Translations under genes and position numbers: made by a program
Shown: in pieces, positions 30,793 to 49,605 of the stretch
Position numbering within the stretch: the first letter of the stretch is position 1
Layout: the number at the start of each line of letters is the position of its first letter
Source: Escherichia coli
GTDB lineage: Bacteria > Pseudomonadota > Gammaproteobacteria > Enterobacterales > Enterobacteriaceae
DNA length: 64,000 nt
Strand: one strand, 5' to 3'
NCBI RefSeq assembly: GCF_024223415.1
Contig: NZ_CP100500.1
Notes under the pieces: model-generated
Told to the model about the DNA's origin: nothing
What the model saw: the letters and a program-made list of their open reading frames with translations, nothing else
Databases searched by the model: none

Positions 30793-31005
30793 AACCCCCT
30801 CCTGTAACTGTAGTTATGTACAGGTGTTATTTTTAGCTGTGTGGATAACCAGTGTCAATTGGTAATATTGCCTATGGGGCATGTATGGGACACTTTTTAT
30901 CGGCGAAATCCGTCGAAGTTCGTCGACATCGAAAACGAATCATCTGTCCAACCCTTGAAAAATGGCGCTCCTGGACGATCTTCGTCGATTTTTAAAAATG
31001 TTGCG

Positions 31006-34839: not shown

Positions 34840-36840
34840 TCATCCTTGTTGCTGAAGCATGGGGAATAATTGTTCGCAAAGCAAAACACCGTTATTCATT
34901 GCTTCTACCCGTGCCTCGCTTTCTGTATTACGAAATTGTCCCAACACATGTGCCAGCCGATAAAAACCCACCGCGGTGAGGTCATTCGCCAGCAACTCTG
35001 CCTGACCAATAGCACTCTGTTCCTGATAGCGCCAGCCGTTATGGAGCAGTTGAATAAGTAACGCCTGGCAGCGTATCAGCAACTGATGAGCAGTAGACGG
35101 CACAGGCAAAACGCTGGCAGAAGGTAGCGGTGCCACAGGCGTAGTTTCTGCGTCCAGCGCCCAGGCACGGGTTTTTGTCATCATCACCCGTGGTTCCAGT
35201 GTCAATTGCCCTTCAACAAAACTGACAAAGCCAGAAACCAGACACACGGGGTCGTCTGTTTGTTGCAAAAGCGCCGCCATGCGTTCAACGGCATAAGGTG
35301 CGCTGGCTGAGGCTGGTAATGATAACGTCAGCACATTATCTTCCCCTTCGCCGCTAATGACCTGCGCATCCAGCGTCTGGCGGCTGCTGTCCCAACCGAG
35401 CGAAATACACTCAGCGACCGGCAGAATAAATAAGTTATCGACCTGATTAAGAGGCCGTATGCAGGCGGGGGGACGCTGGCGTAAATATTCCCGCAAAGCC
35501 ACAATGCCCGGCTGGCGTAACGGCGCGCTCAACATTTGCCAGGCATCAGGCGACAGCGGCACAACGCTGCTTAAGCGGTTGCGGGTAGCTAACAGCAGCT
35601 CGCCATCGGCACTGCGTTTTGCTGCTTGTGAAACAATTTGCCCGCCCGCCAGTGCGCCAGCCTGAAAACTAAACAGCCGACGCGTAGCTGCCGGTGAGTT
35701 TTCCTGTTCACTTCGCGGCCAACTGCGCGAAAGGTGCAAAATACTGCCGGTGTCGGGATCGGTAAACCAGATGCGTAAACCATAATGCTCAATATCCTGC
35801 CAGCAACGCATACCTAAAGACACCAGCCGCAGATGATCAAGCTTTGCTTCTCCGGCAATGCCAGAGCCAACGACCGTGCGCCACGGCACAGGAGGAACTT
35901 CACCAATACTGTCGCGCCGGGCCATCTCTTGTGCGCAATTTAATCGACTGTTTAATGCCGCAAGCTGATGTAAGCATTCTCCGGCATTATAGTGGCTGGC
36001 GCGGGCGTGGAAGGCATCAACGCTGGCGCGCAGTTGCCGTAGCGATTCACTCACCCAGCGCCAGTTGCAGGTCTCTGCCGCCTGCAATGCGCGGTTGAAT
36101 GCTGCCTCGTAATGGATGAGCGGCTGGCTGATGCCGCCAAGCCATAATGTCTGGCTTAATTGCTGAACATATTGACGACACGCGTTGCCTTCTTCGCTGG
36201 CAAACGGATCGTCAGATGATGTGACGTGTTCGCTGCGCATCTGCCAGATTAAATGGTTAAATTCTGCTTGCTGCGCTTTGGCCTCGACGAAGGCCTGTAC
36301 CGCCAGTACGACATGTTCGCAAAGTGTGCCTTCAATACAATCACAACGGGCGAAACGAATACTGCTGCGGGAATAAAAACGCACATCGCTCATCGGTAAG
36401 CGGGCAGAGGGAATTTCACCCGGCGCACAGAACAACTCAATGGTGATGCCTTTAGCGACCAGCGCCTGTGCGCGTTTGCGGGTAGCATCGGGAAGGGTAG
36501 CCAGTTCTTCCAGCCAGATTGCCGGATCCCACTCTTCTTCTTTTTCCGTAGACTGAGTGGTGGCACAAAGTCGTTGATAACTTAACACCAGCATCACGCG
36601 ATGACGGCACATACCGTTGGCCCCGCAACTGCACTGAGCCTCTTTCAGTGCCTGGCCGTTCGCCAGCTGGGTACGGACACCGTCACTGAAGGTGGCGATT
36701 AAAGCGTCGTTCTCATGGCTGATCTCCGGGACGTTGCCATTTTCCAGTTCCTTAAGACTGCGCTTAACAAAACCGGCATTGCTTAACGCCGTCAGGGCCT
36801 GCGGTGTCAGTTCTAATAATTCCGGACGTAGTGAATTCAT
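34840..36840 (-). CDS. yehQ: YehQ (SWIM zinc-finger protein), last gene of yehLMPQ
   Basis: Start overlaps the yehP stop (ATGA); SWIM-like Cys/His motif CSCGANGMCRH. Confidence 0.8.
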   Translation of the reverse strand: MNSLRPELLELTPQALTALSNAGFVKRSLKELENGNVPEISHENDALIATFSDGVRTQLANGQALKEAQCSCGANGMCRHRVMLVLSYQRLCATTQSTEKEEEWDPAIWLEELATLPDATRKRAQALVAKGITIELFCAPGEIPSARLPMSDVRFYSRSSIRFARCDCIEGTLCEHVVLAVQAFVEAKAQQAEFNHLIWQMRSEHVTSSDDPFASEEGNACRQYVQQLSQTLWLGGISQPLIHYEAAFNRALQAAETCNWRWVSESLRQLRASVDAFHARASHYNAGECLHQLAALNSRLNCAQEMARRDSIGEVPPVPWRTVVGSGIAGEAKLDHLRLVSLGMRCWQDIEHYGLRIWFTDPDTGSILHLSRSWPRSEQENSPAATRRLFSFQAGALAGGQIVSQAAKRSADGELLLATRNRLSSVVPLSPDAWQMLSAPLRQPGIVALREYLRQRPPACIRPLNQVDNLFILPVAECISLGWDSSRQTLDAQVISGEGEDNVLTLSLPASASAPYAVERMAALLQQTDDPVCLVSGFVSFVEGQLTLEPRVMMTKTRAWALDAETTPVAPLPSASVLPVPSTAHQLLIRCQALLIQLLHNGWRYQEQSAIGQAELLANDLTAVGFYRLAHVLGQFRNTESEARVEAMNNGVLLCEQLFPMLQQQG

Positions 36841-37973
36841 GACTGAAGATTCTCCGCAAGCCATGATGCCAGCTCGCCCGGCGTCATGGCGGCTATTTGT
36901 GCGCCGACATTAACCAGCGCCTGGGCCGTATCGCGGTCATAGCAAGGTGTTGCGGTGCTATCGAGCGCTGCCAGTCCCAGCACTTTGATGCCGCTCTGGA
37001 CACACTTTTTCACCTGATGCGTCAGTAATGATGATGAACCCCCTTCGTAAAAATCGCTCACGAGGATAATGACGCTTTTCGCTGGTTGTTCAATAAGTTG
37101 CCGACCATACTCCACGGCACTGGCGATATTGGTCCCGCCGCCCAACTGTACTTTCATTAATAACTCTACCGGATCGGCAACGTCTGCCGTGAGATCAACG
37201 ACGCTTGTGTCAAACGCCACCAGATGGGTACGAATGCCGGGTAACTGCCACAAACAGGCCGCCATCACCGCAGAGTGGATCACCGAATCGACCATCGATC
37301 CGCTTTGATCAACCAGTAAGACCAGTTGCCATTGTTCGCTTTGGCGTTTAATGCGGCTGTTAAAGCGGGGGGATTCGATATACAACTTGCCGTGTTGCGG
37401 GTGCCAGTGTTGCAGGTTGGCGCGCAGAGTACTTTTGAAATCAAAGTTTCGCGCCAGTGGAATAAATGAACGGCGACGGCGATCGCGGACACCAGAAAAA
37501 GCCTGACGAACTTCCTTTGCCAGTCGAGCCATAATTTCTTCAACAACCTGGCACACTATCCGGCGGGCGGCAGCCAGTACTTCGGGGTTCATCAGATGTT
37601 TGGTGTGCAAAACAGCGCGTAGCAGGCTTTCAGAAGGCTGCATACGTTCCAGCACGTCGAGATTCGTCACCACATCTTCAATGCCGTAGCGCAGCACGGC
37701 ATCGCTTTCCAGCCGCTCAATCACCTGCTGCGGAAACAGCGTGTGAATACTGTTGATCCACTCAGGGGTGGTGAGATTTGAGCCACCTAATCCACCGGAA
37801 CGTTCACCACGCTGGAGCCGTTCAGGATCGCGCCCATACAGCCACTCCAGCGCGTGGTCTATCTGCCGGGCGTTGTCATCCAGCCCACAAAGCGTCGTTT
37901 CTGCCGCTTCGCCAAGAATTAATCGCCAGCGTTGTAGCTCACGGGTGGTCAGAAGATCGTTCAGTTCAGACAT
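36837..37973 (-). CDS. yehP: YehP (von Willebrand factor A domain protein)
   Basis: 378 aa; VWA motif LLVDQSGSM. Confidence 0.85.
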   Translation of the reverse strand: MSELNDLLTTRELQRWRLILGEAAETTLCGLDDNARQIDHALEWLYGRDPERLQRGERSGGLGGSNLTTPEWINSIHTLFPQQVIERLESDAVLRYGIEDVVTNLDVLERMQPSESLLRAVLHTKHLMNPEVLAAARRIVCQVVEEIMARLAKEVRQAFSGVRDRRRRSFIPLARNFDFKSTLRANLQHWHPQHGKLYIESPRFNSRIKRQSEQWQLVLLVDQSGSMVDSVIHSAVMAACLWQLPGIRTHLVAFDTSVVDLTADVADPVELLMKVQLGGGTNIASAVEYGRQLIEQPAKSVIILVSDFYEGGSSSLLTHQVKKCVQSGIKVLGLAALDSTATPCYDRDTAQALVNVGAQIAAMTPGELASWLAENLQS

Positions 37974-40245
37974 GGAAAACTCCCCAGTTTTGCAGCGATG
38001 CCAGTGCCTGCTGTTCGAGTTGTTGATGATGTGCAATGGCCTGTGGTGGACAATGCAACGGCATTTGCAGCGCCGAAACGGGAAGTTGCGCCAGTTGATA
38101 ATGCTCAAGCACCTGATGCGCCAGCGTCCCGCGTTCTCGTGGTGGTAGCCAGGCCATCGCCGCGCGTAAATCGGGCAGGGCGTTAATAAAATCGGCTTCA
38201 CTCAGTTGATTTAAATGACTGCTGAAACCAGCGATAAATGCCGGCTGACAGGCCAGTTGATGGCGGGCCAGCGCCAGCAAACCGTGCAGCGCCTCACCAG
38301 ATTGTGCCGGGGATAACTGCGCCAGCATCGTCAGCGCCGCTTCGGCACTGGCGTTGGGATGTTCCAGACGCATTAGTGCGCCAAGAGCCGCGCCGCGATC
38401 CAGCGCCGGGGCATGAATTGCCTGACTGCGTCGCTCCAGTAAGGCTACCGCCGCAGAAAGAGAAACGCCGGGTAAATTAACGCCGCTATGTAGATCGCGC
38501 AGAATATGGCAAAGCGCTTGCCAGCTATGCAGGTGAGCGTGAAACTCCTTTTCATCCGGTCTGCCGTTAGATTCACACAGCCACAGCGTGCGATCGATAG
38601 TCGCGCATAACGTCGTTTGTAATATCTGCGCGCCTTGCATACCGCTAATTTCATCCAGCCGCCATAAGGCATAAAGCACTTCCAGCGCCTGGCCCATTTC
38701 GGCAAATTGATTTTCCTGGGCGATTAATAGTGTGAGTTGCTCCAGTAATTGTTGACTGAAGGACGCCAGACCCGCTAACGCCGCCTGGCTAAGACATGTG
38801 GTGATACTGCCGATTCCGCCCGCGTCCAGCATATCGGCTTCTAATTTATTGCGTGCGGCTTCCTGGAGTGTGGCACCAAAACAGGCGGCCTCAATCAATG
38901 CCGCATGCTGGCTAAGCGGGCGGGTTAATTTCCAGCGTTCTTCACCGTTGCCTGCAAGTGTCAGTGTACTTCCCTGCTGGCGTACAATCCCAGGGATCTC
39001 CAGTATTGCCAGCCGATGTAACACCTGACTTTGCGCCAGCCCATCGGGGGTAAAGCGATTTAAGGTAAGCTCCGCCGGAAGGGAGATTGCGGTACGTTCC
39101 AGTTCGCAGGTGACATCTTTTGGCAGAGGCGGTTGTGGCGTAGAAGGGGCAAGTTTACCGAATCCGTCACCCGCTAATGTGTCTATCAACGTTAGCAGAA
39201 TCGGATCGGTATCGGGATGAATAACGCCGCGATAGCTCCACGGCAACGGCGCGTTCAGGGCTTCTTTAATCAGCGAGCCTGCTATGGCATCCAGCCAGTC
39301 AGTGCGTAACGGTAGTGTATGACCGCGCAACTGTGCCAGCGCCATCGCATGCAGATGAGCGGCAGCCATATCCGCGGTAGAAGCGGGCAATTTGTGCTGG
39401 CGCAAACGGGTAAGGATAGTTTTTAGCAGTTGTTCACCGGCCTTCTGCAAGCCCCACTGCCAGCACCAGTTTTGCCATACCGGGGCAGGCATTCCTGAAA
39501 GGTATCCTGCCAGCACATCAAGGCGCTTTTCACTGTAGGGTGTGAGATAACAACCTGTAACGGCATCTGCCAGCGAGGGCAATTCTGGCTTGTTAATTTT
39601 CTGAGGGCATTCGCGCCACATCTTTGCCAGTGCCGGAGCGTGCCAGCCACCGCAGACAACTAACACGTCGCCATTATTTTGCTGCATCGCCCATCCAATC
39701 CAGCGGGCCATAAAGGCTTCGCGCTGACGATTGAGCGCATCGCCGGAGGCGTCGCCCCGCAGTTGGGCAAAATAGTGCGCCAGCGCAGAGGGTAATGCAG
39801 TTTGCTGGCTTTCATCTTCGAACAAGTGATCCCACAGGGTATCGCTGTTATCCATGCGGGTGGCACGCAGCAGTAAGGCCTGGCTTTCATCTTGCGTATC
39901 AGGCGAATCGTCCTCTTCTTCACTCTGCGCCCAGCAAGGCAAATCGATGAAGTAAGTTTGTGCCTGAATGCGACGTGCGGCTTGTAGCGCCTGCCACTCC
40001 GGCGAAAATTCAGCAAATGGCGTCCAGGCACCACGCCCGGGGGCTGCACCGTCCTGATACTGGCAATAACTGTAAATAGCTACCGGAAGCTGGTGGGCTA
40101 AAAACAGTTCGTCTACCCGGTCATTAAAATCAGCCGGGCCTTCAATCAACACGTATCGTGGCCGCTGGCTTTCGATTAACGATTTCACCAGCCGGGCGCA
40201 GGCCGGACTATGATGCCGGATGCCGACAATTAACGGCTCGCTCAT
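37966..40245 (-). CDS. yehM: YehM
   Basis: 759 aa from MSEPLIVGIRHH...; operon context. Confidence 0.85.
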   Translation of the reverse strand: MSEPLIVGIRHHSPACARLVKSLIESQRPRYVLIEGPADFNDRVDELFLAHQLPVAIYSYCQYQDGAAPGRGAWTPFAEFSPEWQALQAARRIQAQTYFIDLPCWAQSEEEDDSPDTQDESQALLLRATRMDNSDTLWDHLFEDESQQTALPSALAHYFAQLRGDASGDALNRQREAFMARWIGWAMQQNNGDVLVVCGGWHAPALAKMWRECPQKINKPELPSLADAVTGCYLTPYSEKRLDVLAGYLSGMPAPVWQNWCWQWGLQKAGEQLLKTILTRLRQHKLPASTADMAAAHLHAMALAQLRGHTLPLRTDWLDAIAGSLIKEALNAPLPWSYRGVIHPDTDPILLTLIDTLAGDGFGKLAPSTPQPPLPKDVTCELERTAISLPAELTLNRFTPDGLAQSQVLHRLAILEIPGIVRQQGSTLTLAGNGEERWKLTRPLSQHAALIEAACFGATLQEAARNKLEADMLDAGGIGSITTCLSQAALAGLASFSQQLLEQLTLLIAQENQFAEMGQALEVLYALWRLDEISGMQGAQILQTTLCATIDRTLWLCESNGRPDEKEFHAHLHSWQALCHILRDLHSGVNLPGVSLSAAVALLERRSQAIHAPALDRGAALGALMRLEHPNASAEAALTMLAQLSPAQSGEALHGLLALARHQLACQPAFIAGFSSHLNQLSEADFINALPDLRAAMAWLPPRERGTLAHQVLEHYQLAQLPVSALQMPLHCPPQAIAHHQQLEQQALASLQNWGVFHV

Positions 40246-40255
40246 GCATCTTTCC

Positions 40256-41344
40256 TCACGGCAGGCGGTGGCGGGCTTGATAATAAGCCTGCCAGTGAGC
40301 TTCTTTATGTGTGGCGACACGCTGTTCGAAGTAACGGCGCAGACGCGCGCGATCTTCTTCGTTATCTTTGACGATGGTTCCGGCAATACATTCCACCAGG
40401 TCGGCAGGCTCCCCCGCGCGATTCGCTAAAAACCAGGCGCGGACGCCCACAGCATGGGCCACGTTCACGGCTTCAGCGGTGGACATAATCGCTGTCAGTG
40501 TATCCATTGACGTTTTCTTTTCGCCGTTGGCACGCAGATCGCGGAAGGTGCGGACCAGTAATTCCAGTACCGCGTCAGGCACTTTATGCGGAATACCGCT
40601 ATGGGCCAGCAAACGCGCCGAAGCACTGGCGACCAGTTCCAACTCCTGGGCGAAATCCATAATCGGAAAAACCGTTTCAAAATCGAAGCGACGCTTTAGC
40701 GCAGCACTCATTTCATTGACGCCGCGATCGCGGGTATTGGCAGTGGCAATAATATTAAAGCCTTCTCGCGCATAGAGCTGACTGGCTTCACCAGTGAGTT
40801 CCGGCACCGTCATCACCCTGTCAGAAAGCATACCTAACAGACAGTCCTGCACTTCCAGCGGTGTACGCGTTATCTCTTCGAAACGGACGATTTTGCCGTC
40901 GCGCATTCCCTGATAAAGCGGGGCAGGGACCAGCGCTTCCGTTGACGGACCATGATTGATAAGCAAGGCGTAGTTCCAGCCATACTTGATTTGATCTTCG
41001 GTGGTAGATGCCCCGCCCTGGATGGTTAACCCGGCATCGCCGCTAATAGCGGTTGCCAGTAATTCAGAAAGAAGAGATTTTGCGGTACCCGGTTCCCCCA
41101 CCAACATCAAACCGCGGCCGGTAGCAAGAGTGACTAACATACGTTCGACAGCGGAGGGGCTAATCACCACTTTACGGCTGATATTTTGCGCTTCGTCGCC
41201 AAGGATAAAAGCACGGGCCGCAGGCAAACTTAACTGCCAACCGGGCGGGCAAGGTGCGTTATCATTTTGTTTTAATTTTGCCAGTTCATCGGCGTATAAC
41301 ACAGCAGCAGGCGGACGCTGCAGATGATTATTCTGCGGTGACAT
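40256..41344 (-). CDS. yehL: YehL, MoxR-like AAA+ ATPase
   Basis: 362 aa; Walker A GEPGTAKS. Confidence 0.85.
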   Translation of the reverse strand: MSPQNNHLQRPPAAVLYADELAKLKQNDNAPCPPGWQLSLPAARAFILGDEAQNISRKVVISPSAVERMLVTLATGRGLMLVGEPGTAKSLLSELLATAISGDAGLTIQGGASTTEDQIKYGWNYALLINHGPSTEALVPAPLYQGMRDGKIVRFEEITRTPLEVQDCLLGMLSDRVMTVPELTGEASQLYAREGFNIIATANTRDRGVNEMSAALKRRFDFETVFPIMDFAQELELVASASARLLAHSGIPHKVPDAVLELLVRTFRDLRANGEKKTSMDTLTAIMSTAEAVNVAHAVGVRAWFLANRAGEPADLVECIAGTIVKDNEEDRARLRRYFEQRVATHKEAHWQAYYQARHRLP

Positions 41345-41650
41345 ATATTCATCCCTGAAATGTATTAATGAAATAAACGATATTTTACGCGCAATAAATG
41401 TTTGGCGCATTAGTTGTTTGAGCGAAAAATATCTGGAAAGCAGATCACAGTAAATAAAAAAACCTGCTGGTGAGGCAGGTTCTTTTATTTACTATTTTCA
41501 GGCCTAACACCACAGCCTGTGCAACATCGTGTTCCAACGAACGAATTATAACCACGGCTGGACCCCGTTGCAATTAAGATAATGAGATTTATAATCCAGG
41601 CCATTGGGACGTTGCGCCGGATCGGACCAATTTGAATTATTTAGAGTATA

Positions 41651-41968
41651 TTATTCTATTTCTTGGTTGAATATATTCTGTAGTTCACGATTAAAAATTG
41701 CTATTACAGTTTCAGGTGATTCACCTCGTAATTTCCGCTCATCAATACACTCATCTCTTATATAAATCAACGCATCATTTATTAGCGGGTCAGCATCTTC
41801 TCGATCACGTTGATGAAATGTTGGACGTAGCCGGAATCGCTCCAGTCGATAGACGGAACCTGTAAATAATTCAGAGCATTTATGGATCTCAAGTCTGAAG
41901 GAAAACGGATCTTCAGGTACAGGGACCTCATAATCGTAAATAGCAACCAGCTCTTTTTGCACGATCAT
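41651..41968 (-). CDS. yehK: YehK
   Basis: 105-aa conserved small protein. Confidence 0.8.
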   Translation of the reverse strand: MIVQKELVAIYDYEVPVPEDPFSFRLEIHKCSELFTGSVYRLERFRLRPTFHQRDREDADPLINDALIYIRDECIDERKLRGESPETVIAIFNRELQNIFNQEIE

Positions 41969-42028
41969 CGCTTTCCCCGCTGGTAAGTCGTGTTGATAAC
42001 GGGCAGTTGCATCACTGCCCGCTGTGTT

Positions 42029-45000
42029 TTAATGGAAAATGACGTCAGGTGCGCTTAACGCCTCACTCAAATCAAACACATCAAGTTCGGCAAAGGTGAC
42101 GGATTTATTGTCACGGTACACTCGAAGAGAACGGAAGCTCATTAGCGCTTTGCTATCAACATTGTAGTGGTTAAAACCGGGTGAAAACTTAAGGACCAGC
42201 CGGTACTCACCCAGGTTATAGACAAATGCGTCCTCATAGCCTGACTCCCAGCCTTTGTATCGCATTCCCATAAGTTGCCCAACGGTAGCGGATTTACCTT
42301 CCCAGCGAGTCAGGCTGTTACTGGTTGACTCGTCAGGTGTGAGCAGCACCGTGCGGCGCGACAACTGGCGAAAAGGCGGCATAATTTCGTAATCGGCAAA
42401 AAGCTGTGCAAATTCACTGCGCATTTCTGCTGTCATTTCTAACGGGTGGGCAATGCCAATCAGAGCGTCCGCAGGCAGGTCAATTGGCTCATCTTGCGCA
42501 TTGCAGAACTCCCCCTCTGCGGCCACACGAAAGGCTTTGAGTAAACAACGCGGTTCATTTGCCGGATAAACCCCCCATATTAATCGCTGGGTAACCAGAC
42601 GGGTAAAGGGATGATTAACAAACAGAGAATGAAAATCTGCCAGCGACCAGCGTCGGGTGGTACGTAGGGCCGTTTCAAGACGCGGGAGCAGGTTTTTGCT
42701 CACCTGAGTAGCATCTTTTTTTAGCCCTTTTAGTCGGGCCAGTGCCTCGGGCGCTTTCAGTTGATCGTCATCGGCGCGCAAACGGGGAACGCTTTTCTGG
42801 CGAACGTTTTGCTGATCAAAGATAACCGGGTTGAGATTTTCATCGAAGCGAACGGTAAACTGCCGGGGACCAAAATCAAAACTCAACGCCTGCGGATCAT
42901 CAAGGCCCAGGGTTGGGACTAATCTGTCCGCTAGCTCTTCCTGGCTTAGCCCGCGATTTTCTGCGACCACCTGAAGAAATTCCGCCGCGTTATCACGTAA
43001 GGGGCGGGATTTAGCCCGTTGCGATATATGATGCAGCTGTATCAGCGCCATATCATTATTCATCAGGGTAAGGATGTTCAGGCCGCTGACAGCACGGGCA
43101 GATTTGCCTTCTTGTGGCCAGGCGAGGATCTGTGTCGTCAGATCCCGTGCCGTGCTTTCGTCACCAAAGAGACTTAACGCCAGAAATGCCCAGTTGTCTT
43201 TTGCGGGGGCACCAGCTTGTTGCCACGCAGTGAAGAGATCCCAAGCAAAAGCTGCCAGCGTTTGTGGCTGGCAGAACGTTTTCAGTTGTTCCAGCCCGCT
43301 ATAAAAACGTCCCCCCTGGGTAAAGCGCAGCATTTCGCCGATAATTTCCAGAGCGTCATTGGTAACAGTTTGATTATTAGTGATAAGGCGCGGCCTGGAC
43401 CACATTTGCGGATGCCAGAAATCAGGGGCTTTTGGAATGCGTGCCGGGTAAATGTCCATTGGACCCTGTTTAAGCAACTGCTCCAGGGCAGACCATACAT
43501 CTGTACGCTGCCAGCGGTTTGCCACGGTTTGTAGCAATTCGCCATGTCCCTGTTCGTACAGTAAACGCAGGGCAAGTAATGCGGCTTCGCTATTATCGCT
43601 GGGTTTGGTAAAGACAAGAGGGATAAGTGCACTAGCCGTATGTTCCGGCCATTGTAAAATCCACTGGCGAGCCAGATCACGCTGCGCCGCGAAACGTCGC
43701 CAGACGTGGGCAACAGGCAGCGCCAGTTCTGTTGCGCCAAAATTTAAAATTAACGGAAATGTTTCTTTTGGACGATGTGAAAAAGCCAACAGCAGACCTG
43801 GTAGCGCATCCAATCCGAGGATACTGAGAAAATAGTCCTCACCCGCGAACAGATGCTTTTTCTCATTGATACGCAGCCAGAAGGTCAAAGCCATCTCACG
43901 CGGCAACTGTGCCAATAAATACAGGTTCCAGACACTCTTTTCCGGACGATAATGTGAGTAGTTGTCATTTTCCCATATGTTAATTAACGCTTCTATGTGA
44001 CCGCTGCGGAGCGCCTGTTCTGCTAATTGTGCTTCCGGGGAGTTCCAGCCATTCAGGATCTCTTCAACCCGCCCCTGGTAGTAATGCCACTGAACAAAGA
44101 GTGAATTGCGTGCAGCATCCAGTTTTCCGGGGAGTATATAATTCAGAAACAGCCATACATCATCCCCAAAACCCAGTTCCTGTAATACAACTCGTCCACT
44201 TTTTTGTTCCATGCGTTGCGCAAGAGATTCCGTGCTGAAATAACGGGCAGGCTCAGTGGCGGCAAGCCTCTCTTGTTCGCCTGGTTGCCAGTAAACTTGC
44301 GGAGTTAATTCGAGCGGTGCCAAATCAAGACGTGGAGCTGTCATTTTTTTCTTACTACGCCACGGTGGTGAAACGAGGATTTCTGGCAGATTGCTGTTAT
44401 CGGTGCCATCAATAACCGGTTTGGGCGGTGCCGATAAATAACTCTTCAGCACTGACTGGGGTTGAGTACTTAACCACGGCATCACTTCTGCTGCCAGTTG
44501 TGGCTGCGATGCCATCAGCGTTTGTAACAGCGCACGCCAGTATTCATCGCGTGCTTTTTGCTGTGCAGGCAGCTTTTTGTCTTCGATGATTGGATAACCA
44601 GGGCGGGCTGGTGGTTCTGTTAACGCCAGCAGTTCTGCCAGTGCGGCGAGCGTCGCATGGGGGAAGTTTTTATGGTATTTAGCTACACGTTGCAGGCTGG
44701 GTTTGTTTTTATCAGCCACCAGTAGCAAGGTGCGGATGACTTGCGGATGGTTAATTTGTACCAGCAGACTGCCGCAATCTTCTTTATGGGCATACATCGC
44801 GAGGCGCGGAATGGCTGCCAGTCCTTGTTCGCGCAAAAGGGCGGCGCAGGCCGCGTAGCCGAAGTGGTTTTCATGCGACATGTAGCTGGCTTCTCGATCG
44901 CTAAATATATCCTGGCTCCAGTAGTGTTCGAGTTTTCTCACCGCTGTGGGGTCATTAGCAACAACTTTTAACCACTCCTTAGAATGAAAATGAGTTCGCG

Positions 45001-45661
45001 GGCATTCAAGGCCTACCAACTCATTGGCTATTTCTGGTTTTTCCGGGAGGATCAGCGCAATAAAAGGGCGGCGAACTTTGGTTATTCCTGGTAGTGCGGC
45101 AATGAGTTTGTCGGCGCAACGCTGCCAGCAGCTTTCCTCTGCCAGAGAGAGATGCTTACGCAGTCGGAGATCGAATTCGTTATAGGTTTCTGAGCGATAA
45201 CCATAGCCATAATCCTCGTCCTGATACTGCAATGTCACTACCAGAGGATCACTCTCATAACACCGCGCAATAAACTGGCGTGCAATCACCACCTCAGTCG
45301 CATATTCCAGCCCCTCTTGTTGGACGATTTCGTCGAGCAACTGTTGGCTGTCATTTTGCGCGATACAGGCTAGCGCCGCCATTGTCCGGTCCGGGATTGA
45401 GGGTTTGTGTTCGCCGATCAAGTTGATGGCCTGCGTGATGGCGGACTGCCACTCCAGTGAAAAATTCTCATAACGCCAGACAATGTTTTTTTTCTTCTCA
45501 GCTTTTTGTAGCAATTCATCACCCAATGTCTGGATGAGACTTCCAGTGATAACGGACACTGGTTCGCCCGGCCAGCGACGATGACTGAGCGGCGTTTTGC
45601 CTTTTTTATATTTCAGTTCCAGTTGGGCGTTATCCGCCAGCCACGGTAATTCCTTGTCCAT
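42029..45661 (-). CDS. yehI: YehI (DUF4132 protein)
   Basis: 1210 aa; paralogous to MolR over much of its length. Confidence 0.85.
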   Translation of the reverse strand: MDKELPWLADNAQLELKYKKGKTPLSHRRWPGEPVSVITGSLIQTLGDELLQKAEKKKNIVWRYENFSLEWQSAITQAINLIGEHKPSIPDRTMAALACIAQNDSQQLLDEIVQQEGLEYATEVVIARQFIARCYESDPLVVTLQYQDEDYGYGYRSETYNEFDLRLRKHLSLAEESCWQRCADKLIAALPGITKVRRPFIALILPEKPEIANELVGLECPRTHFHSKEWLKVVANDPTAVRKLEHYWSQDIFSDREASYMSHENHFGYAACAALLREQGLAAIPRLAMYAHKEDCGSLLVQINHPQVIRTLLLVADKNKPSLQRVAKYHKNFPHATLAALAELLALTEPPARPGYPIIEDKKLPAQQKARDEYWRALLQTLMASQPQLAAEVMPWLSTQPQSVLKSYLSAPPKPVIDGTDNSNLPEILVSPPWRSKKKMTAPRLDLAPLELTPQVYWQPGEQERLAATEPARYFSTESLAQRMEQKSGRVVLQELGFGDDVWLFLNYILPGKLDAARNSLFVQWHYYQGRVEEILNGWNSPEAQLAEQALRSGHIEALINIWENDNYSHYRPEKSVWNLYLLAQLPREMALTFWLRINEKKHLFAGEDYFLSILGLDALPGLLLAFSHRPKETFPLILNFGATELALPVAHVWRRFAAQRDLARQWILQWPEHTASALIPLVFTKPSDNSEAALLALRLLYEQGHGELLQTVANRWQRTDVWSALEQLLKQGPMDIYPARIPKAPDFWHPQMWSRPRLITNNQTVTNDALEIIGEMLRFTQGGRFYSGLEQLKTFCQPQTLAAFAWDLFTAWQQAGAPAKDNWAFLALSLFGDESTARDLTTQILAWPQEGKSARAVSGLNILTLMNNDMALIQLHHISQRAKSRPLRDNAAEFLQVVAENRGLSQEELADRLVPTLGLDDPQALSFDFGPRQFTVRFDENLNPVIFDQQNVRQKSVPRLRADDDQLKAPEALARLKGLKKDATQVSKNLLPRLETALRTTRRWSLADFHSLFVNHPFTRLVTQRLIWGVYPANEPRCLLKAFRVAAEGEFCNAQDEPIDLPADALIGIAHPLEMTAEMRSEFAQLFADYEIMPPFRQLSRRTVLLTPDESTSNSLTRWEGKSATVGQLMGMRYKGWESGYEDAFVYNLGEYRLVLKFSPGFNHYNVDSKALMSFRSLRVYRDNKSVTFAELDVFDLSEALSAPDVIFH

Positions 45662-45670
45662 GCTCTTTCC

Positions 45671-48600
45671 TTATTCAAACAGGGCTTCAATATCGTTAAT
45701 TAGCTCGCTGGCGGTGATGGCATCGATTACGGAGAACTGCGCTTCCTGTGTTGAATTACTCCCCCAGCCATATCTTTCTGCTTTGCCTTCCCATAGCCAC
45801 AGCTTGCTTAAGAGCTGCTCAGCGCTGAGTTCGGCTGGCGACATGCCTACCGCAAAGCCTTCATCGATTTCCATGATTAACGACCAGCGACCCAAAGGTT
45901 TGATCATCCATCCGATCCAGCCTCCATCCTGTGGTTCGCCCTTTATCCAGCCTTTATTCGCCAGCCCCATGACCCGACCACTCGGGCATTTTCTGCCTGC
46001 CCAGCGGGTCAGTTCACTGGCATTGCGCTCGGCTTCTGTCAGGGCGTAGCTGTTACGGTCGATCTGGCGGAACGGTGGTAGCAGTTCGTAGTCGGCAAAA
46101 AGCTGACCAAAGGCGGCAGCATCCGTTGGTGATATTTCCAGAACGTGAGGAGTGCCGATAGAGATATCGCCTTCCGGCAGGGTGAAAAGATCATCGTCAG
46201 CGGTGCTGGAGCTGTTATCTTCTGCTACGCGAAAGCAAGCCAGTAGCTGGTTTTCGGCGCTATAAACGCCCCAAATCAGACGGCGGGTTAAGTGACGAAC
46301 CAGCGGATGCTCAACCAGGAAGAGCTGGAAGTTTTCCAGCGACCAGCGGCGGCGCAGGCACATGGCGGATTCCAGCCTTGCTACCTGCTGGGCGGCGATG
46401 GTACGCGCATCTTTTTTCAGCAATTTGTAGCGGTTAACCGCATCGTTCGCCCGCGTTTCATCATCGCTTTTGTTCGGTTTGGGCAGGTCTTTCAGGCGGC
46501 TGCCGGAAACATCACGCACAAACGGTTTTAAGGTTTCATCAAAGCTGACGGTGAACTGCCGTGGGCCAAAATCCAGCAGCAGCGAACCGTTATCATCCAG
46601 ACCGAGATCCGGTGCTAACCGATCTTCAAGCTCCGCCACCGTGAGTTCGCGGCTCTCGGCAATGTCGGCAATTTTTTCTTTTGCCCGCTCCTGTAATGCT
46701 TTGAATTTCAGTTTCTGGGCGATGCCGTTAAGCTGCATAAGGGCGATATCACTACCGATAGCAGCGAGAATATCCAACCCAACGGTGGCGCGTTTATGCT
46801 GGGATTCACCAGGCCAGGCGCGTATTAATGGCGTCAGTTTGCGGGCGGTGTCATCGTTACCGAGAACGCCTAACGCAGTGAACGCCCAACTCTCTTTCGA
46901 CGGCGCGCCAGCGGTCTGCCAGGCGGTAAACAGATCCCAGGCAAATCCCGCCAGTGAGTCGGCGGAACAGACGTCTTTCACCTGCAATAATCCCGGATAC
47001 AGAGCCTCTTCCTGAGGGAAGCGGAGCATTTCACCGAGGTGGAGGAGGGCGCTATCTGGCAGTGATTGGGCATTTGCTTTTAATACCGGGCGCGTCCAGA
47101 GCGATGGCTGATAAAAGGCCGGAAGAGTGGGGATTTTTGTCGGGTGATTATCTAAGGGATCGAGCGCAAGCAGAGCGTTCACCGCATCGGTTACTTCCGG
47201 CTGGTTATAACGTCGGGCGATTTCTTGCAGTAATGGCTGATGACCGTTTTCGGTAAGCATACGCAAGGCAGCGCGGGCGTTATCCTGGGCTTCACCGGCT
47301 TTGCCGAGCGCCGCAGGCAGCAGGCCGGTAAGGGCATGTTCCGGGTATTTCAACAGCCAGCTACGGGCGTTTTCGCGTAGCGTTTTCAGTTTGTTGAAGG
47401 CACGGGCGACGGCAGGAGCCAGCTCACTCGCTGCGAAGTAATTCGTGATGGGCAAGGCTTCTTGTGGATAGCGTGCAAGTGAGTTTACTAACCCAGGTAA
47501 CCCTTTGAGTCCAAAATGTAACATGGAGTATTCGGTATCGGTATGTGGAGATAGGGTAAGGGCATTCCATGCTTTTACTGCTTTCTCCAGCGGCAATGTT
47601 GTCAAAATCCCCAACTGCCAATAATGCCCGGTAGGTGAATGAAACACCTTAAATTCACTTAGTAAGGTTGAATAATCTTCATTTAGCCATGCCTCAACTA
47701 CCGCTTCGGGAGCTTTAATATATGTACCAGCGATCCGTCGTTGAAAACCCATCCTTGCCAACAGGTTGGTAGTACTTTCTTCATGGCTAACCGTGATGTG
47801 TTTTGAATACCAGATATATTTCGCCAAAAGTTGATTACTGATTTCTTCTGTCAGATAACAGATTGGCTCAATGCCTAATGGCGCTAAATCCAGCACCGGA
47901 ATCGGCGATTTTTTCTTTTTCGAAAGCCAGGGAGGGGAGACTACTACGGCTGGCAGTAGATCGGCGCTGGCATGGTTTGAGGGCTGTGTCAGTTGTTGCT
48001 GGCATGATTTCAGTACGGCAACTGCGGGTGTCGAGAGCCAGGGAATGACCTGTTCTGCCAGTGCTGGTTGTGAGATAAGCATTGTCATTAGCATAATGCG
48101 CCAACTGTTCTCTTCTTTTTGCCCAAGAAGTTCCGTCAGTGCCGCCATTGCTGCATGTGGGAACGCAGCAATGGCTTTCGTCATCCGATCGTGACAGCGT
48201 TTAGTTTGCCCGGCTACACGTATAAGCAGTGTCAATGCGAACGGATGATTGATATGACGCAACACATCGGCGCAGTAGTCACTTGCGGCATAGGGAGCAA
48301 ATCGGGGCAGGGCTGCAACACCTTGCTCCTGTAATACGGTGGCTGACCATATCGCACCACAATAGTAATCATCAAAAATGGCATATGGTTCGTGATATTT
48401 TTCTAATGAGGCAAGAATGTGCTCATCAGTCGCCACTATTTTTAACCACTCAAGCGAGGGTAATTTTTTTTGCCCCAGTAGACGCTGGGCAATTTCATGT
48501 GCAATTTCTGGTTTTTCGGGTAATAACAAAGCAATTAATGGTTGCCGCCATTCTGGAATATGTGGAATTGCTGCAATAAGTTTTTGTGCACATTTTTGCC

Positions 48601-49465
48601 AGAGAGACTCTTCCGTCAGTGATAAATGTTTACGTAGGCGTAATTCAAATCTGGAATATTGCTCCAAGTAGCTAGGTGCAATGCCAGACGGCAGAATAAT
48701 AATGACATTATTCGCATAATCCCATTCAATATCAATCTGTTGAAGGTGTGTTATTACATCAGTAGCATATTCCAGACCGCCTTCCTGGACGATCTGATCC
48801 ATAACATCCTCACGCACTTTATATCTTGTGCATTTCATTTCAAGTGCCGTGAGTACAGCCATTACTGGTGATGGTAACTGTGTTGTTTTCAGGCCGTCGA
48901 TCTGACTGATCGCCTGGGCGACGGTGTTTTGCCATTCTAAAGAACAGGCGCTGAAGTCAAATGTGGCTGTTTTATTATCCCGTTGCGACACACTACAGGC
49001 TAAGCGACGTAATTGGGTCAATTTGTCTGCTTGCTGAACAGGAACTCCGGGAAAGCGGCGATGACTTAACGTGGTGTGTACAACTTCGGGCGGAAAAACG
49101 ACAGCAATATCTTTCGCCAGCCACGGTAAAACAGCATCTGTATTTTTGTCAGGCGCACGGGTTTCTGCTACGAAAGAGGGTTGTTCCTGAATAATGGTGG
49201 ATAAGTCCGCTACCTTGAGAGAGCCCGTTACCGTTTGGGAAGGTTGCAAAGAATTATCCTTCGCTTGCTCCACATACCCCTTCTTCACCTTCTCCGCAAT
49301 CAGCTTAAGTTCCGCTTTTTCCGCTGCCGCAGCATCTGAAAAACTTTTTATCTGACTTTGCCCTTTGGTGCCAACTTTTCCCCAACTGATATGCAACTCG
49401 TTTCCCTGTTGCTCCACCGCCCAGAATTTATGTGATTTTTCGTCCTGATAGATAAAGTGTCTCAT
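45671..49465 (-). CDS. molR: MolR, intact (WGR domain N-terminus plus DUF4132)
   Basis: Single 1264-aa ORF; N-terminal WGR-like HKFWAVEQQGNELHISWGKVGTKGQ. Confidence 0.8.
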   Translation of the reverse strand: MRHFIYQDEKSHKFWAVEQQGNELHISWGKVGTKGQSQIKSFSDAAAAEKAELKLIAEKVKKGYVEQAKDNSLQPSQTVTGSLKVADLSTIIQEQPSFVAETRAPDKNTDAVLPWLAKDIAVVFPPEVVHTTLSHRRFPGVPVQQADKLTQLRRLACSVSQRDNKTATFDFSACSLEWQNTVAQAISQIDGLKTTQLPSPVMAVLTALEMKCTRYKVREDVMDQIVQEGGLEYATDVITHLQQIDIEWDYANNVIIILPSGIAPSYLEQYSRFELRLRKHLSLTEESLWQKCAQKLIAAIPHIPEWRQPLIALLLPEKPEIAHEIAQRLLGQKKLPSLEWLKIVATDEHILASLEKYHEPYAIFDDYYCGAIWSATVLQEQGVAALPRFAPYAASDYCADVLRHINHPFALTLLIRVAGQTKRCHDRMTKAIAAFPHAAMAALTELLGQKEENSWRIMLMTMLISQPALAEQVIPWLSTPAVAVLKSCQQQLTQPSNHASADLLPAVVVSPPWLSKKKKSPIPVLDLAPLGIEPICYLTEEISNQLLAKYIWYSKHITVSHEESTTNLLARMGFQRRIAGTYIKAPEAVVEAWLNEDYSTLLSEFKVFHSPTGHYWQLGILTTLPLEKAVKAWNALTLSPHTDTEYSMLHFGLKGLPGLVNSLARYPQEALPITNYFAASELAPAVARAFNKLKTLRENARSWLLKYPEHALTGLLPAALGKAGEAQDNARAALRMLTENGHQPLLQEIARRYNQPEVTDAVNALLALDPLDNHPTKIPTLPAFYQPSLWTRPVLKANAQSLPDSALLHLGEMLRFPQEEALYPGLLQVKDVCSADSLAGFAWDLFTAWQTAGAPSKESWAFTALGVLGNDDTARKLTPLIRAWPGESQHKRATVGLDILAAIGSDIALMQLNGIAQKLKFKALQERAKEKIADIAESRELTVAELEDRLAPDLGLDDNGSLLLDFGPRQFTVSFDETLKPFVRDVSGSRLKDLPKPNKSDDETRANDAVNRYKLLKKDARTIAAQQVARLESAMCLRRRWSLENFQLFLVEHPLVRHLTRRLIWGVYSAENQLLACFRVAEDNSSSTADDDLFTLPEGDISIGTPHVLEISPTDAAAFGQLFADYELLPPFRQIDRNSYALTEAERNASELTRWAGRKCPSGRVMGLANKGWIKGEPQDGGWIGWMIKPLGRWSLIMEIDEGFAVGMSPAELSAEQLLSKLWLWEGKAERYGWGSNSTQEAQFSVIDAITASELINDIEALFE

Positions 49466-49605
49466 TCTGCATCCCTGTAATTTTATCCAGTTGAATGCAG
49501 ATGCTACCAGTATTTATGCGGGTTAGAGAGAGACAAAATCGCAAGAAAACAACTTTAGGAATTTATAAAGAAAAGGCGCTGTCGATGCAGCGCCTTGAAG
49601 GGGGA

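Follow-up and report, generated by a model that had tools for sequence, protein, structure and literature searches.

Rea1 (Midasin) carries out the ATP-driven extraction of proteins that are gripped through its MIDAS. It acts on pre-ribosomes and, like the locus described here, brings together AAA_5 ('dynein-related subfamily') modules, a MIDAS domain and long scaffolds of HEAT repeats. The MoxR-VWA pairs RavA-ViaA, CbbQ-CbbO, NorQ-NorD and CoxD-CoxE share with our locus a MoxR ATPase beside a MIDAS-bearing VWA protein (PMC3893208). Our locus differs from these pairs by three further obligatory partners (a DUF5682 protein with a TIKI-like domain, a SWIM protein and DUF4132 solenoids), by the lack of an adjacent client enzyme and by its predicted damage-response control. 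Membership in the class I chelatases (CobNST/BchHID) was also considered, but MolR shows no fold match to the CobN/BchH large subunit.

A damage-induced system of similar composition is the operon ddrTUVWX of Deinococcus deserti (Deide_18730-18690), which encodes among others a SWIM protein and a VWA CoxE-like protein and is radiation-induced in an IrrE/DdrO-dependent manner (PMC5552922). It has in common with our locus the combination of SWIM, AAA_5/MoxR, DUF5682 and VWA_CoxE proteins in one operon and a damage-responsive operator. However, in Deinococcus the SWIM gene is in first position and its product is shorter (466 aa), DUF5691 takes the place of the DUF4132/WGR adaptor, and the regulator is DdrO/IrrE instead of LexA. 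The counterpart in D. taeanensis L086 has the order SWIM-DUF5691-AAA_5-DUF5682-VWA_CoxE and is preceded by a perfect RDRM at a distance of 20 nt. Neither regular nor permissive Pfam searches found DUF5691 in the proteins of our locus, and hhalign comparisons of the YehQ family with the Deinococcus DUF5691 and SWIM proteins were not significant beyond the zinc finger. Because DUF4132 comes first, SWIM comes last and DUF5691 is missing, we regard our module as a sister architecture and not as a member of ddrTUVWX.

Organization of the E. coli locus

The window is a 64,000-nt stretch of Escherichia coli DNA (GCF_024223415.1, NZ_CP100500.1), in which the locus occupies positions 34840-49465; all features described below lie on the minus strand. 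Gene coordinates are based on the list of open reading frames and the RefSeq annotation of a 99.9%-identical genome. The first gene, molR (45671-49465), is intact and encodes 1264 aa with a WGR domain (residues 6-69, ~49259-49450; Pfam), a HEAT-like solenoid and a conserved C-terminal α/β region including DUF4132 (residues 988-1173, ~45947-46504; Pfam). It is followed by yehI (42029-45661; 1210 aa, Pfam DUF4132 at residues 954-1138), a molR paralogue without WGR, by yehK (41651-41968; 105 aa), which has no recognisable domain, and by an OrzO-P-type antitoxin sRNA gene (41456-41531; Rfam RF02083, 99.9 bits, full length). The remaining genes are yehL (40256-41344; 362 aa), encoding a MoxR-class AAA+ ATPase (Pfam AAA_5, E=1.7e-34), yehM (37966-40245; 759 aa, Pfam DUF5682), yehP (36837-37973; 378 aa, Pfam VWA_CoxE, E=3.3e-72, with a complete MIDAS) and yehQ (34840-36840), whose full-length product of 666 aa has two N-terminal SWIM zinc fingers and ~480 further residues of unknown fold. 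An earlier note on this DNA had listed molR as a single 1264-aa frame, together with yehI and yehLMPQ, in this interval, which agrees with our analysis. Pfam (AAA_5, DUF5682, VWA_CoxE, SWIM) supports both its gene content (MoxR ATPase, large partner, VWA, SWIM) and its description of a MoxR/VWA module that has giant partners. Scans of all proteins of the locus with PADLOC, NCBIfam and permissive Pfam (E<=10) yielded nothing past the known domains.

The note had also described an operon following molR and yehI. As a whole, the E. coli cluster is not a single operon, since molR-yehI are separated from yehLMPQ by yehK and by an sRNA gene that has a terminator of its own. No Pfam, PADLOC or NCBIfam match was found for yehK, and among 82 comparison loci it occurred in E. 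whittamii (Escherichia) only; as none of the loci outside Escherichia had it, it was probably not part of the ancestral module. The sRNA gene is preceded by a promoter-like site (41573..41545) and ends in a stem and T-run terminator (41481-41461), which should also block read-through from molR-yehI-yehK into yehL, judging from its sequence. No zorO/zorP 29-aa toxin frame was found beside it, so that it appears as an orphan antitoxin, while the O157:H7 counterpart has two toxins and two sRNAs.

A five-gene module in four phyla

The 82 comparison loci were from Proteobacteria, Actinomycetota, Myxococcota and Acidobacteriota. They revealed an ancestral unit with a fixed order, namely DUF4132 (one to three tandem copies), AAA_5/MoxR, DUF5682, VWA-MIDAS and SWIM. 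This order was kept on one strand in at least 64 of the 82 loci, in Enterobacterales, Burkholderiales, Xanthomonadales, Myxococcota, Acidobacteriota and Actinomycetota; Pfam-annotated contexts from Serratia and Variovorax had an identical gene order. A YehP-type VWA gene was located two genes downstream of yehL in nearly all loci, and natural fusions of DUF5682 and VWA exist in some genomes. The distribution across phyla is patchy, with unrelated flanks and occurrences on (mega)plasmids. Among 112 flanking ORFs from 37 loci there was no recurrent neighbour (no family was seen more than twice), no conserved client enzyme gene and, by comparison with PADLOC, no defence-island signature; the handful of flanking ORFs that matched PADLOC models did so through generic kinase/ATPase families.

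Core proteins and DUF4132 adaptors

YehL is the type member of the YehL subfamily, one of seven MoxR subfamilies (PMC3893208). Its Walker A motif (GEPGTAKS), an acidic Walker-B-like motif (RFEEITR) and the KRRF arginines were at least 95% conserved among 84 homologues, and by its sequence features, including the genomic coupling to a VWA gene, it is a MoxR AAA+ protein. A weak match was obtained to the bpMoxR model, which was built from MoxR-vWA-beta-propeller ternary systems. The MIDAS of YehP (D221-Q-S-G-S225, T281, D306) was at least 95% conserved in 80 homologues, and YehP also matched a cobaltochelatase model weakly. Within yehP, a +1 frameshift hotspot has been published (PMC2790909), which corresponds to positions 37100-37115 (GTGGAGTATGGTCGGC). 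In YehQ the residues C70, C72, C78 and H80 were invariant in 43 homologues and are followed by a second CxC..CxH (Pfam SWIM, E=1.6e-7).

Structure prediction divided YehM into three parts: an N-terminal α/β domain (~residues 1-240, ~39526-40245), an α/β-helical region in the middle and, at the C-terminus (~residues 445-759), a HEAT-like solenoid. In the model, the N-terminal domain shares the fold of the TIKI/TraB/ChaN/erythromycin-esterase superfamily; the best structural match was the haem-binding ChaN, and BchI was also among the matches. The residues H11, E35, H51, E83, R175, E176 and H202 were invariant in homologues. At the sequence level PF04187 was matched by 4 of 62 YehM relatives (best E=0.0027), YehM itself had no TIKI/TraB/ChaN/Ere-family Pfam match at E<=10, and the hhalign comparison with the E. 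coli TraB-family protein YbaP aligned the second GxxH motif alone, with a probability of 0.2%, which is not significant. The predicted domain may be a hydrolase or a ligand binder. Unlike the known members of the superfamily (TIKI, TraB, PrgY, ChaN, erythromycin esterase), it is part of a 759-aa subunit with a HEAT scaffold, within a proposed AAA+/VWA machine. DUF5682 was not mentioned in the searched literature.

MolR and YehI are paralogues, as had been proposed, with 37% identity over 1184 residues. The structure prediction suggested for MolR by the earlier note was run and placed a HEAT solenoid between the WGR domain and the conserved α/β C-terminus; GUN4 and bilin-lyase HEAT proteins were among the structural matches, and CobN and BchH were not. 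In comparison to the ST131 counterpart, residues 61-660 were 25-65% identical except for one 60-residue stretch with 92%, and residues ~720-1264 were 87-100% identical. It is the N-terminal half of MolR that is hypervariable, both between E. coli alleles and between paralogues. In MolR-type proteins generally, the C-terminal ~420 residues were conserved everywhere and the N-terminal half, the copy number (1-3) and the WGR domain varied. PARP WGR domains contact DNA breaks. Residues 6-69 of MolR match the WGR domain of PARP3 at the profile level in addition to Pfam WGR, but MolR has no PARP catalytic domain; PDB sequence searches with single proteins and family profiles found the WGR domain alone. 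Presence of WGR depends on the lineage. As YehI and, in many actinobacterial loci, every paralogue lack this domain, we consider it an optional add-on. A role in molybdate metabolism found no support in the sequence, and we treat the name molR as historical.

Damage-response promoter motifs in front of the module

Directly upstream of molR we identified a LexA (SOS) box at 49473-49492 (AACTGGATAAAATTACAGGG), with its CTG-N10-CAG core at 49475-49490, that ends 8 nt before the ATG. This sequence has a unique exact match in the window; it is the only non-coding CTG-N10-CAG in 34840-49600 and has the most A/T-rich spacer (8/10). An identical box precedes the first DUF4132 paralogue of ST131, and Klebsiella grimontii has CTGGATAAAAACACAG at the position of the molR box. 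Going by these sites, molR carries a LexA box that fits the E. coli SOS regulon, and molR has been listed among the SOS genes with a known box (PMC6590174; PMC4576408 citing RegulonDB). We consider this regulon status the most informative fact that was absent from the earlier note. Searches for LexA boxes in front of the Serratia, Erwinia, Burkholderiales and Xanthomonadales modules found no convincing site, and neither did searches for Cheo-type boxes in Actinomycetota loci.

Two further regulators appear to be connected with the module. In D. radiodurans, depletion of DdrO raises DRA0166 (DUF4132) and DR2173 (WGR) (PMC8533742). For Actinomycetota we used the PafBC consensus tGTCgg(N10)tA(N3)T (PMC8635444). 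In 42 actinobacterial loci (885 kb) it matched 17 times on the plus strand and 3 times on the minus strand, compared to none and one, respectively, in the non-actinobacterial loci (761 kb). Sixteen of the 17 plus-strand matches were followed, after 7-251 nt, by the first usable start codon of a DUF4132 gene (15) or of yehL (1), and seven matches showed a spacing of 7-8 nt to the start codon, as is typical of leaderless transcripts. Homologous modules thus stand behind predicted PafBC-type promoters in Actinomycetota, directly upstream of the module in 15 of the 42 loci.

Variation within E. coli

An alignment of 14.9 kb of the window with MG1655 shows 21 substitutions and one 1-bp indel. These include MolR W15R, MolR L275stop, a +1 frameshift in molR and YehQ E615stop. 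As stated in the earlier note, molR is fragmented in K-12, where it is annotated as yehF and the pseudogene yehH. A lesion absent from that note is the one in K-12 yehQ, where GAG>TAG at window position 34998 creates an amber codon at E615 and shortens YehQ. The intact molR is the common state in E. coli and not a rarity, and K-12 is the exception: full-length MolR sequences formed clusters with 7,215 and 21,639 members, a MolR allele class at 88% identity was found on at least 1000 contigs, and so was the exact 666-aa YehQ protein. Other inactivating lesions were detected in O157:H7 (yehM and two DUF4132 genes), XYEH3934 (yehI) and ST131 (yehK frameshift); ST131 and O157 have three DUF4132 paralogues each. 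A resistance transposon has inserted in the region in ST131 L1a (PMC9334617).

Between the window and ST131, dN/dS was 0.024 for yehL, 0.078 for yehP, 0.090 for yehQ, 0.107 for yehM, 0.20 for yehI and 0.25 for molR (metG as comparison, 0.008), showing that every core gene is under purifying selection in this comparison. Coverage of yehLMPQ reached at least 80% in 5202 of the 5426 complete E. coli genomes (~96%), at a fixed position. The expectation of a core rather than mobile cluster therefore holds inside E. coli. It does not hold at the larger scale, in view of the patchy occurrence across phyla, the unrelated neighbourhoods, the (mega)plasmids, a GC content of the locus of 55% and the binding of H-NS to the yehL promoter region (PMC3686432).

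Possible function and alternative explanations

Our preferred reading, to which we assign a probability of roughly 0.5, is a single conserved machine of the MoxR(AAA+)/VWA class, switched on by DNA damage, with MolR/YehI and YehL-YehM-YehP-YehQ as its subunits. A common machine is suggested because the five families co-occur in one order in four phyla and keep their ATPase and MIDAS motifs, and a role after DNA damage because LexA (Escherichia, Klebsiella), RDRM/DdrO (Deinococcus) and PafBC (Actinomycetota) signals front the module. DNA damage would induce the DUF4132 adaptors, and with them the rest of the operon in most genomes. A target that appears after damage might be picked by the variable N-terminal solenoid of MolR/YehI, which WGR would help in some versions, and the conserved C-terminus would dock on the YehLMPQ core. 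The YehP MIDAS could then grip an acidic residue on the client or on a partner subunit, the YehL hexamer would pull or remodel the client with ATP by analogy to other MoxR-VWA and Rea1/MIDAS systems, and the modelled TIKI-like domain of YehM may possibly hydrolyse it. In E. coli the ancestral operon would have been split, with the SOS box staying with molR-yehI and yehLMPQ coming under the H-NS-bound promoter.

The main rival is an anti-phage or anti-mobile-element conflict system, in which MolR/YehI would be sensors of invader proteins or DNA and YehLMPQ the transducer or effector, so that damage control would reflect prophage induction or phage-triggered damage and not repair. The hypervariable half of MolR within one species, the one to three paralogues, the patchy and plasmid-borne occurrence with unrelated flanks, the GC content, the H-NS-bound promoter region (PMC3686432), the type I toxin-antitoxin locus inserted in the cluster and the weak bpMoxR match would all fit, and damage-response activators are reported to co-regulate defence genes in other bacteria (PMC12392091). 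However, none of the seven proteins of the locus matched PADLOC-DB 2.0 defence models at E<=0.01, few flanking ORFs did and only through generic families, no recognised toxic effector domain is present, the locus has its fixed position in ~96% of E. coli genomes, and gene-wide dN/dS (up to 0.25) gives no signal of positive selection at that resolution. We regard this explanation as rather unlikely, though worth keeping in view.

Characterised MoxR-VWA pairs are maturation factors (PMC3893208), and the module might accordingly be read as a maturation or cofactor-insertion chaperone similar to CoxD/E, NorQ/D, CbbQ/O, RavA/ViaA or the class I chelatases, with the 140-kDa MolR/YehI holding the substrate, the ChaN-like YehM domain binding a cofactor, and the old name 'molybdate metabolism regulator' pointing to metal handling. 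The VWA_CoxE and cobaltochelatase matches of YehP, the structural matches of YehM (ChaN, BchI) and MolR (GUN4/bilin-lyase HEAT) and an AAA+, VWA and ~140 kDa subunit architecture parallel to CobS/T/N are in line with this. We nevertheless consider it improbable: characterised MoxR systems usually adjoin their client and none was conserved in the 37 loci, MolR shows no match to the fold of CobN or BchH, the response of the Deinococcus homologues was not accompanied by one of molybdenum-cofactor genes (PMC8533742), and damage-response promoters in three phyla as well as hypervariable adaptors would be left unexplained. We consider it very improbable that the E. coli cluster, acquired horizontally long ago, is an island now slowly decaying under H-NS silencing, with no current function and with the SOS box as a leftover. 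The independent lesions in K-12 (molR, yehQ), O157:H7, XYEH3934 and ST131, the ST131 L1a transposon and the naming of all six genes in the DGF-298 genome-reduction paper could agree with decay, but the window and most genomes have all six core genes intact, dN/dS of 0.02-0.25 indicates continuing purifying selection and the LexA box is kept between Escherichia and Klebsiella.

Implications for the MoxR-VWA family

Returning to the damage-induced machine, control of one module by three unrelated damage regulators would be difficult to account for if it had no role after DNA damage. molR has counted among the E. coli SOS genes since 2000, and ddrTUVWX belongs to the D. deserti operons with the strongest induction by radiation, both without an assigned function; our comparison suggests that their modules belong to one family of five-component MoxR-VWA machines. 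It is conceivable, though unlikely on present evidence, that this is a widespread damage-response machine with an AAA+ motor, a MIDAS grip, a TIKI-like hydrolase and exchangeable HEAT-solenoid adaptors, some with a PARP-type WGR break sensor, which clears or processes proteins trapped on damaged DNA; candidate targets would be DNA-protein crosslinks, poisoned topoisomerases and stalled complexes. If true, it would be a functional analogue of the eukaryotic p97-SPRTN/Wss1, and the recruitment by LexA, DdrO and PafBC would reflect a common need after DNA damage. E. coli genetics may have been uninformative here because molR and yehQ are interrupted by stop codons in K-12, the strain of the Keio collection. 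With an intact locus as in the window the role becomes directly testable, with the TIKI-like domain and the hypervariable adaptor half as concrete mutational targets.

Architecture and distribution of the module

The window corresponds to the metG-yehR interval of the E. coli chromosome and shows 99.9% identity to many complete genomes. Gene coordinates come from two sources, the ORF list and a near-identical genome annotated in RefSeq; these coordinates and the Pfam matches agree with the gene content and positions reported in an earlier note on this sequence. All genes lie on the minus strand, namely molR (45671-49465, 1264 aa, WGR and DUF4132 domains), yehI (42029-45661, 1210 aa, DUF4132), yehK (41651-41968, no Pfam match), yehL (40256-41344, AAA_5), yehM (37966-40245, DUF5682), yehP (36837-37973, VWA_CoxE) and yehQ (34840-36840, SWIM). 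YehI, which has no WGR domain, is indeed a paralogue of MolR as had been proposed, with 37% identity across 1184 residues.

When genomes were scanned with a profile of the YehM family, at least 581 species representatives proved to encode relatives. The 82 loci compared here, comprising the 80 best of the scan and two additional contexts, come from Enterobacterales, Burkholderiales, Xanthomonadales, Myxococcota, Acidobacteriota and many Actinomycetota. The synteny comparison suggested by the earlier note revealed a fixed order, DUF4132 gene(s)-yehL-yehM-yehP-yehQ on one strand, in at least 64 of the 82 loci; DUF4132 is encoded once in 36 of these, twice in 17 and three times in 11. In the independently Pfam-annotated contexts of Serratia and Variovorax a single WGR+DUF4132 gene is located immediately 5′ of the AAA_5 gene. 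Small unannotated ORFs occur within two loci, one of 145 aa before the AAA_5 gene in Variovorax (L004, 8387-8824) and one of 78 aa between the AAA_5 and DUF5682 genes in Deinococcus (L086, 8747-8983). Single-chain DUF5682-VWA_CoxE fusions of about 1120-1180 aa were found among metagenomic and genomic relatives (P0168, P0228, P0264), and their natural occurrence argues for YehM and YehP being direct physical partners.

Among 112 flanking ORFs no family recurred more than twice and no defence-island signature was detected. Uracil-DNA-glycosylase-superfamily proteins account for two of these ORFs (loci L003-L084) and RecJ is encoded two genes upstream of the Variovorax module, which is too little for an association in either case. 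The module is also carried on large plasmids of Rhizobium, Streptomyces, Iodobacter and Deinococcus. Fixed order, unrelated flanks and plasmid copies thus mark a self-contained and, by this genomic evidence, horizontally mobile module of five components that is nevertheless nearly fixed in Escherichia. The view that the cluster is core rather than mobile therefore holds within E. coli, where 5202 of the 5426 complete genomes cover yehLMPQ to at least 80%, but not for the plasmid-borne copies and unrelated flanks seen elsewhere.

The E. coli module is a split version of the five-gene unit. The gap between yehI and yehL, a spacing of just 78 nt in Klebsiella, holds an OrzO-P-type antitoxin sRNA gene (41456-41531, minus strand; Rfam RF02083, full length, 99.9 bits) with its own promoter-like site (41573..41545, minus) and terminator (41481-41461, minus), and yehK was found only in Escherichia among the 82 loci. 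The region upstream of yehL is occupied by H-NS (PMC3686432). No zorO/zorP toxin ORF was found near the sRNA gene, which stands alone. K-12 carries this orphan copy too, and the zor-orz locus has been described as missing from MG1655 (PMC2887945). O157:H7 and E. whittamii encode two sRNA copies each, O157 together with two 29-aa toxins. Within yehP we found the published +1 ribosomal frameshift hotspot (PMC2790909), GTGGAGTATGGTCGGC, at 37100-37115 (minus strand, codons ~287-291). Its residues are not conserved outside Escherichia, and a conserved regulatory role therefore seems unlikely.

Lesions in K-12 and selection on the module

The MG1655 annotation splits molR into yehF and the pseudogene yehH and gives yehQ 614 aa, in line with the earlier statement that molR is fragmented in K-12 and a single ORF here. 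Base-by-base comparison over 14.9 kb showed 21 substitutions and one 1-bp indel between the window and MG1655. The K-12 differences include an amber stop at yehQ codon 615 (E615stop, window 34998), an opal stop at molR codon 275 (L275stop, 48642), a +1 frameshift in molR (~46620) and W15R in the WGR motif of MolR (codon 15, 49423). Since these stops and the frameshift hit both molR and yehQ, the usual laboratory strain amounts to a naturally occurring double mutant of the module, and as a practical consequence K-12 genetics has been performed on a system broken in two subunits.

The intact molR is nothing special, as full length is the common form: full-length MolR clusters comprise 7,215 and 21,639 member sequences, a MolR allele class of 88% identity occurs on at least 1000 contigs, and so does the 666-aa YehQ of the window. 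The molR-yehI part is at least 80% covered in 4665 of 5426 genomes, often as diverged pieces of 90-95% identity. Lesions occur in other lineages as well, such as a frameshifted yehI in strain XYEH3934 and a resistance transposon inside the region in ST131 L1a (PMC9334617). A decaying island, the least probable of the explanations considered here, would be one reading of such a locus. Despite these lesions, the module genes are all subject to purifying selection when the window is compared with ST131: dN/dS is 0.024 (yehL), 0.078 (yehP), 0.090 (yehQ), 0.107 (yehM), 0.20 (yehI) and 0.25 (molR, relative to the ST131 paralogue nearest to it), and metG has 0.008.

Protein components and variation of MolR

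YehL, the type member of one of seven MoxR subfamilies (PMC3893208), retains Walker A (GEPGTAKS), an acidic Walker-B-like motif (RFEEITR) and the KRRF arginines. The MIDAS motif of YehP is complete and conserved, and YehQ contains two SWIM fingers with invariant Cys/His residues. From structural modelling, a TIKI-like domain can be newly, if provisionally, assigned in YehM. MolR residues 65-1264 are predicted (pLDDT 86) to form a long HEAT-like solenoid followed by an α/β region including DUF4132, and structural matches were to generic solenoids only. At profile level its WGR domain matches that of PARP3; this domain is present in most single-copy loci and missing from all paralogues in many actinobacterial loci.

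Residues invariant across phyla concentrate in the last ~420 residues of MolR. ST131 (L087, 12143-19717) and O157:H7 (L085, 7140-13614) encode three tandem DUF4132 genes compared to two in the window, and the window MolR is a mosaic whose WGR domain and C-terminal half (residues ~720-1264, 87-100% identical), but not residues 61-660 (25-65%, with one 60-residue stretch at 92%), are near-identical to one ST131 paralogue. This pattern suggests either recombination between paralogues or fast divergence of the 61-660 half, and this hypervariable half might serve as an adaptor.

Proposed regulation by DNA damage

E. coli molR has been listed as a LexA-regulated gene whose SOS box is known (PMC6590174, PMC11039860), and RegulonDB likewise lists it, according to a citation in PMC4576408. 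In the window the LexA box AACTGGATAAAATTACAGGG is located at 49473-49492, 8 nt 5′ of the molR ATG; it is identical in ST131, and Klebsiella grimontii conserves it as CTGGATAAAAACACAG in the corresponding place. The Serratia, Erwinia and Burkholderiales loci yielded no LexA-type box. Perfect CTGT-N8-ACAG palindromes, the strict LexA-box core, also occur on the plus strand at 18707-18722 and, inside mlrA by coordinate mapping, at 30808-30823, and with a chance expectation of ~0.9 per window both may mean nothing.

In Deinococcus deserti, the ddrTUVWX operon, whose five genes begin with one for a SWIM protein and end with one for a VWA CoxE-like protein, is strongly radiation-induced in an IrrE/DdrO-dependent manner (PMC5552922). 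The counterpart in D. taeanensis is organized as SWIM-DUF5691-AAA_5-(78 aa)-DUF5682-VWA_CoxE, and a perfect RDRM lies 20 nt in front of it. This operon type is a sister architecture of the E. coli-type module and not identical to it. Depletion of DdrO in D. radiodurans de-represses both DRA0166 (DUF4132) and DR2173 (WGR) (PMC8533742).

The published PafBC consensus tGTCgg(N10)tA(N3)T (PMC8635444) matched 17 times on the gene strand and three times on the opposite strand of 42 actinobacterial loci, 15 of which contained the strict consensus, and was absent from the gene strand of the non-actinobacterial loci (761 kb). Sixteen of the 17 gene-strand matches precede a DUF4132 gene or yehL, at 7-251 nt from its first usable start codon; in seven matches the distance is the 7-8 nt that leaderless transcripts would have. 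The matches come from four actinobacterial families and differ in their spacer sequences. As far as the searched literature shows, these predicted PafBC promoters are new. The module would thus be under DNA-damage control in three phyla, which provides a clue to its function.

Proposed function

That the locus encodes a MoxR-VWA-type system we consider a real finding, whereas its role is proposed only. The best-supported reading, to which we assign a probability of about one half, is that of a MoxR-VWA remodelling machine induced by DNA damage. In it, solenoids of the MolR type would serve as exchangeable adaptors, binding the target through a variable half and docking through a conserved one, with WGR as an optional extra domain; YehP would grip via its MIDAS, YehL would provide force, YehM would act as scaffold and perhaps also hydrolyse, and YehQ would add zinc-finger contacts. 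For the first and last of these steps, the identity of the target and the chemistry, we infer rather than observe. A more specific version, in which the machine would clear damaged DNA of trapped proteins as a bacterial analogue of the p97-SPRTN type, is speculative.

The main rival, an SOS-linked conflict system, would account for why the adaptors are hypervariable, why paralogues have expanded and why the distribution is patchy, but the module has no PADLOC match, lacks a defence-island context and is near-fixed at one locus, and we consider this explanation unlikely, if less so than any other alternative. A role in cofactor maturation is improbable, only slightly ahead of a decaying island. 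We rate the interest of the locus higher than the earlier note did because of the family link, the intact locus compared to K-12, the TIKI-like domain of YehM and the hypervariable half of MolR. The family in question unites the SOS gene molR and the Deinococcus radiation operon, both of them orphans, with the loci that have predicted PafBC promoters.
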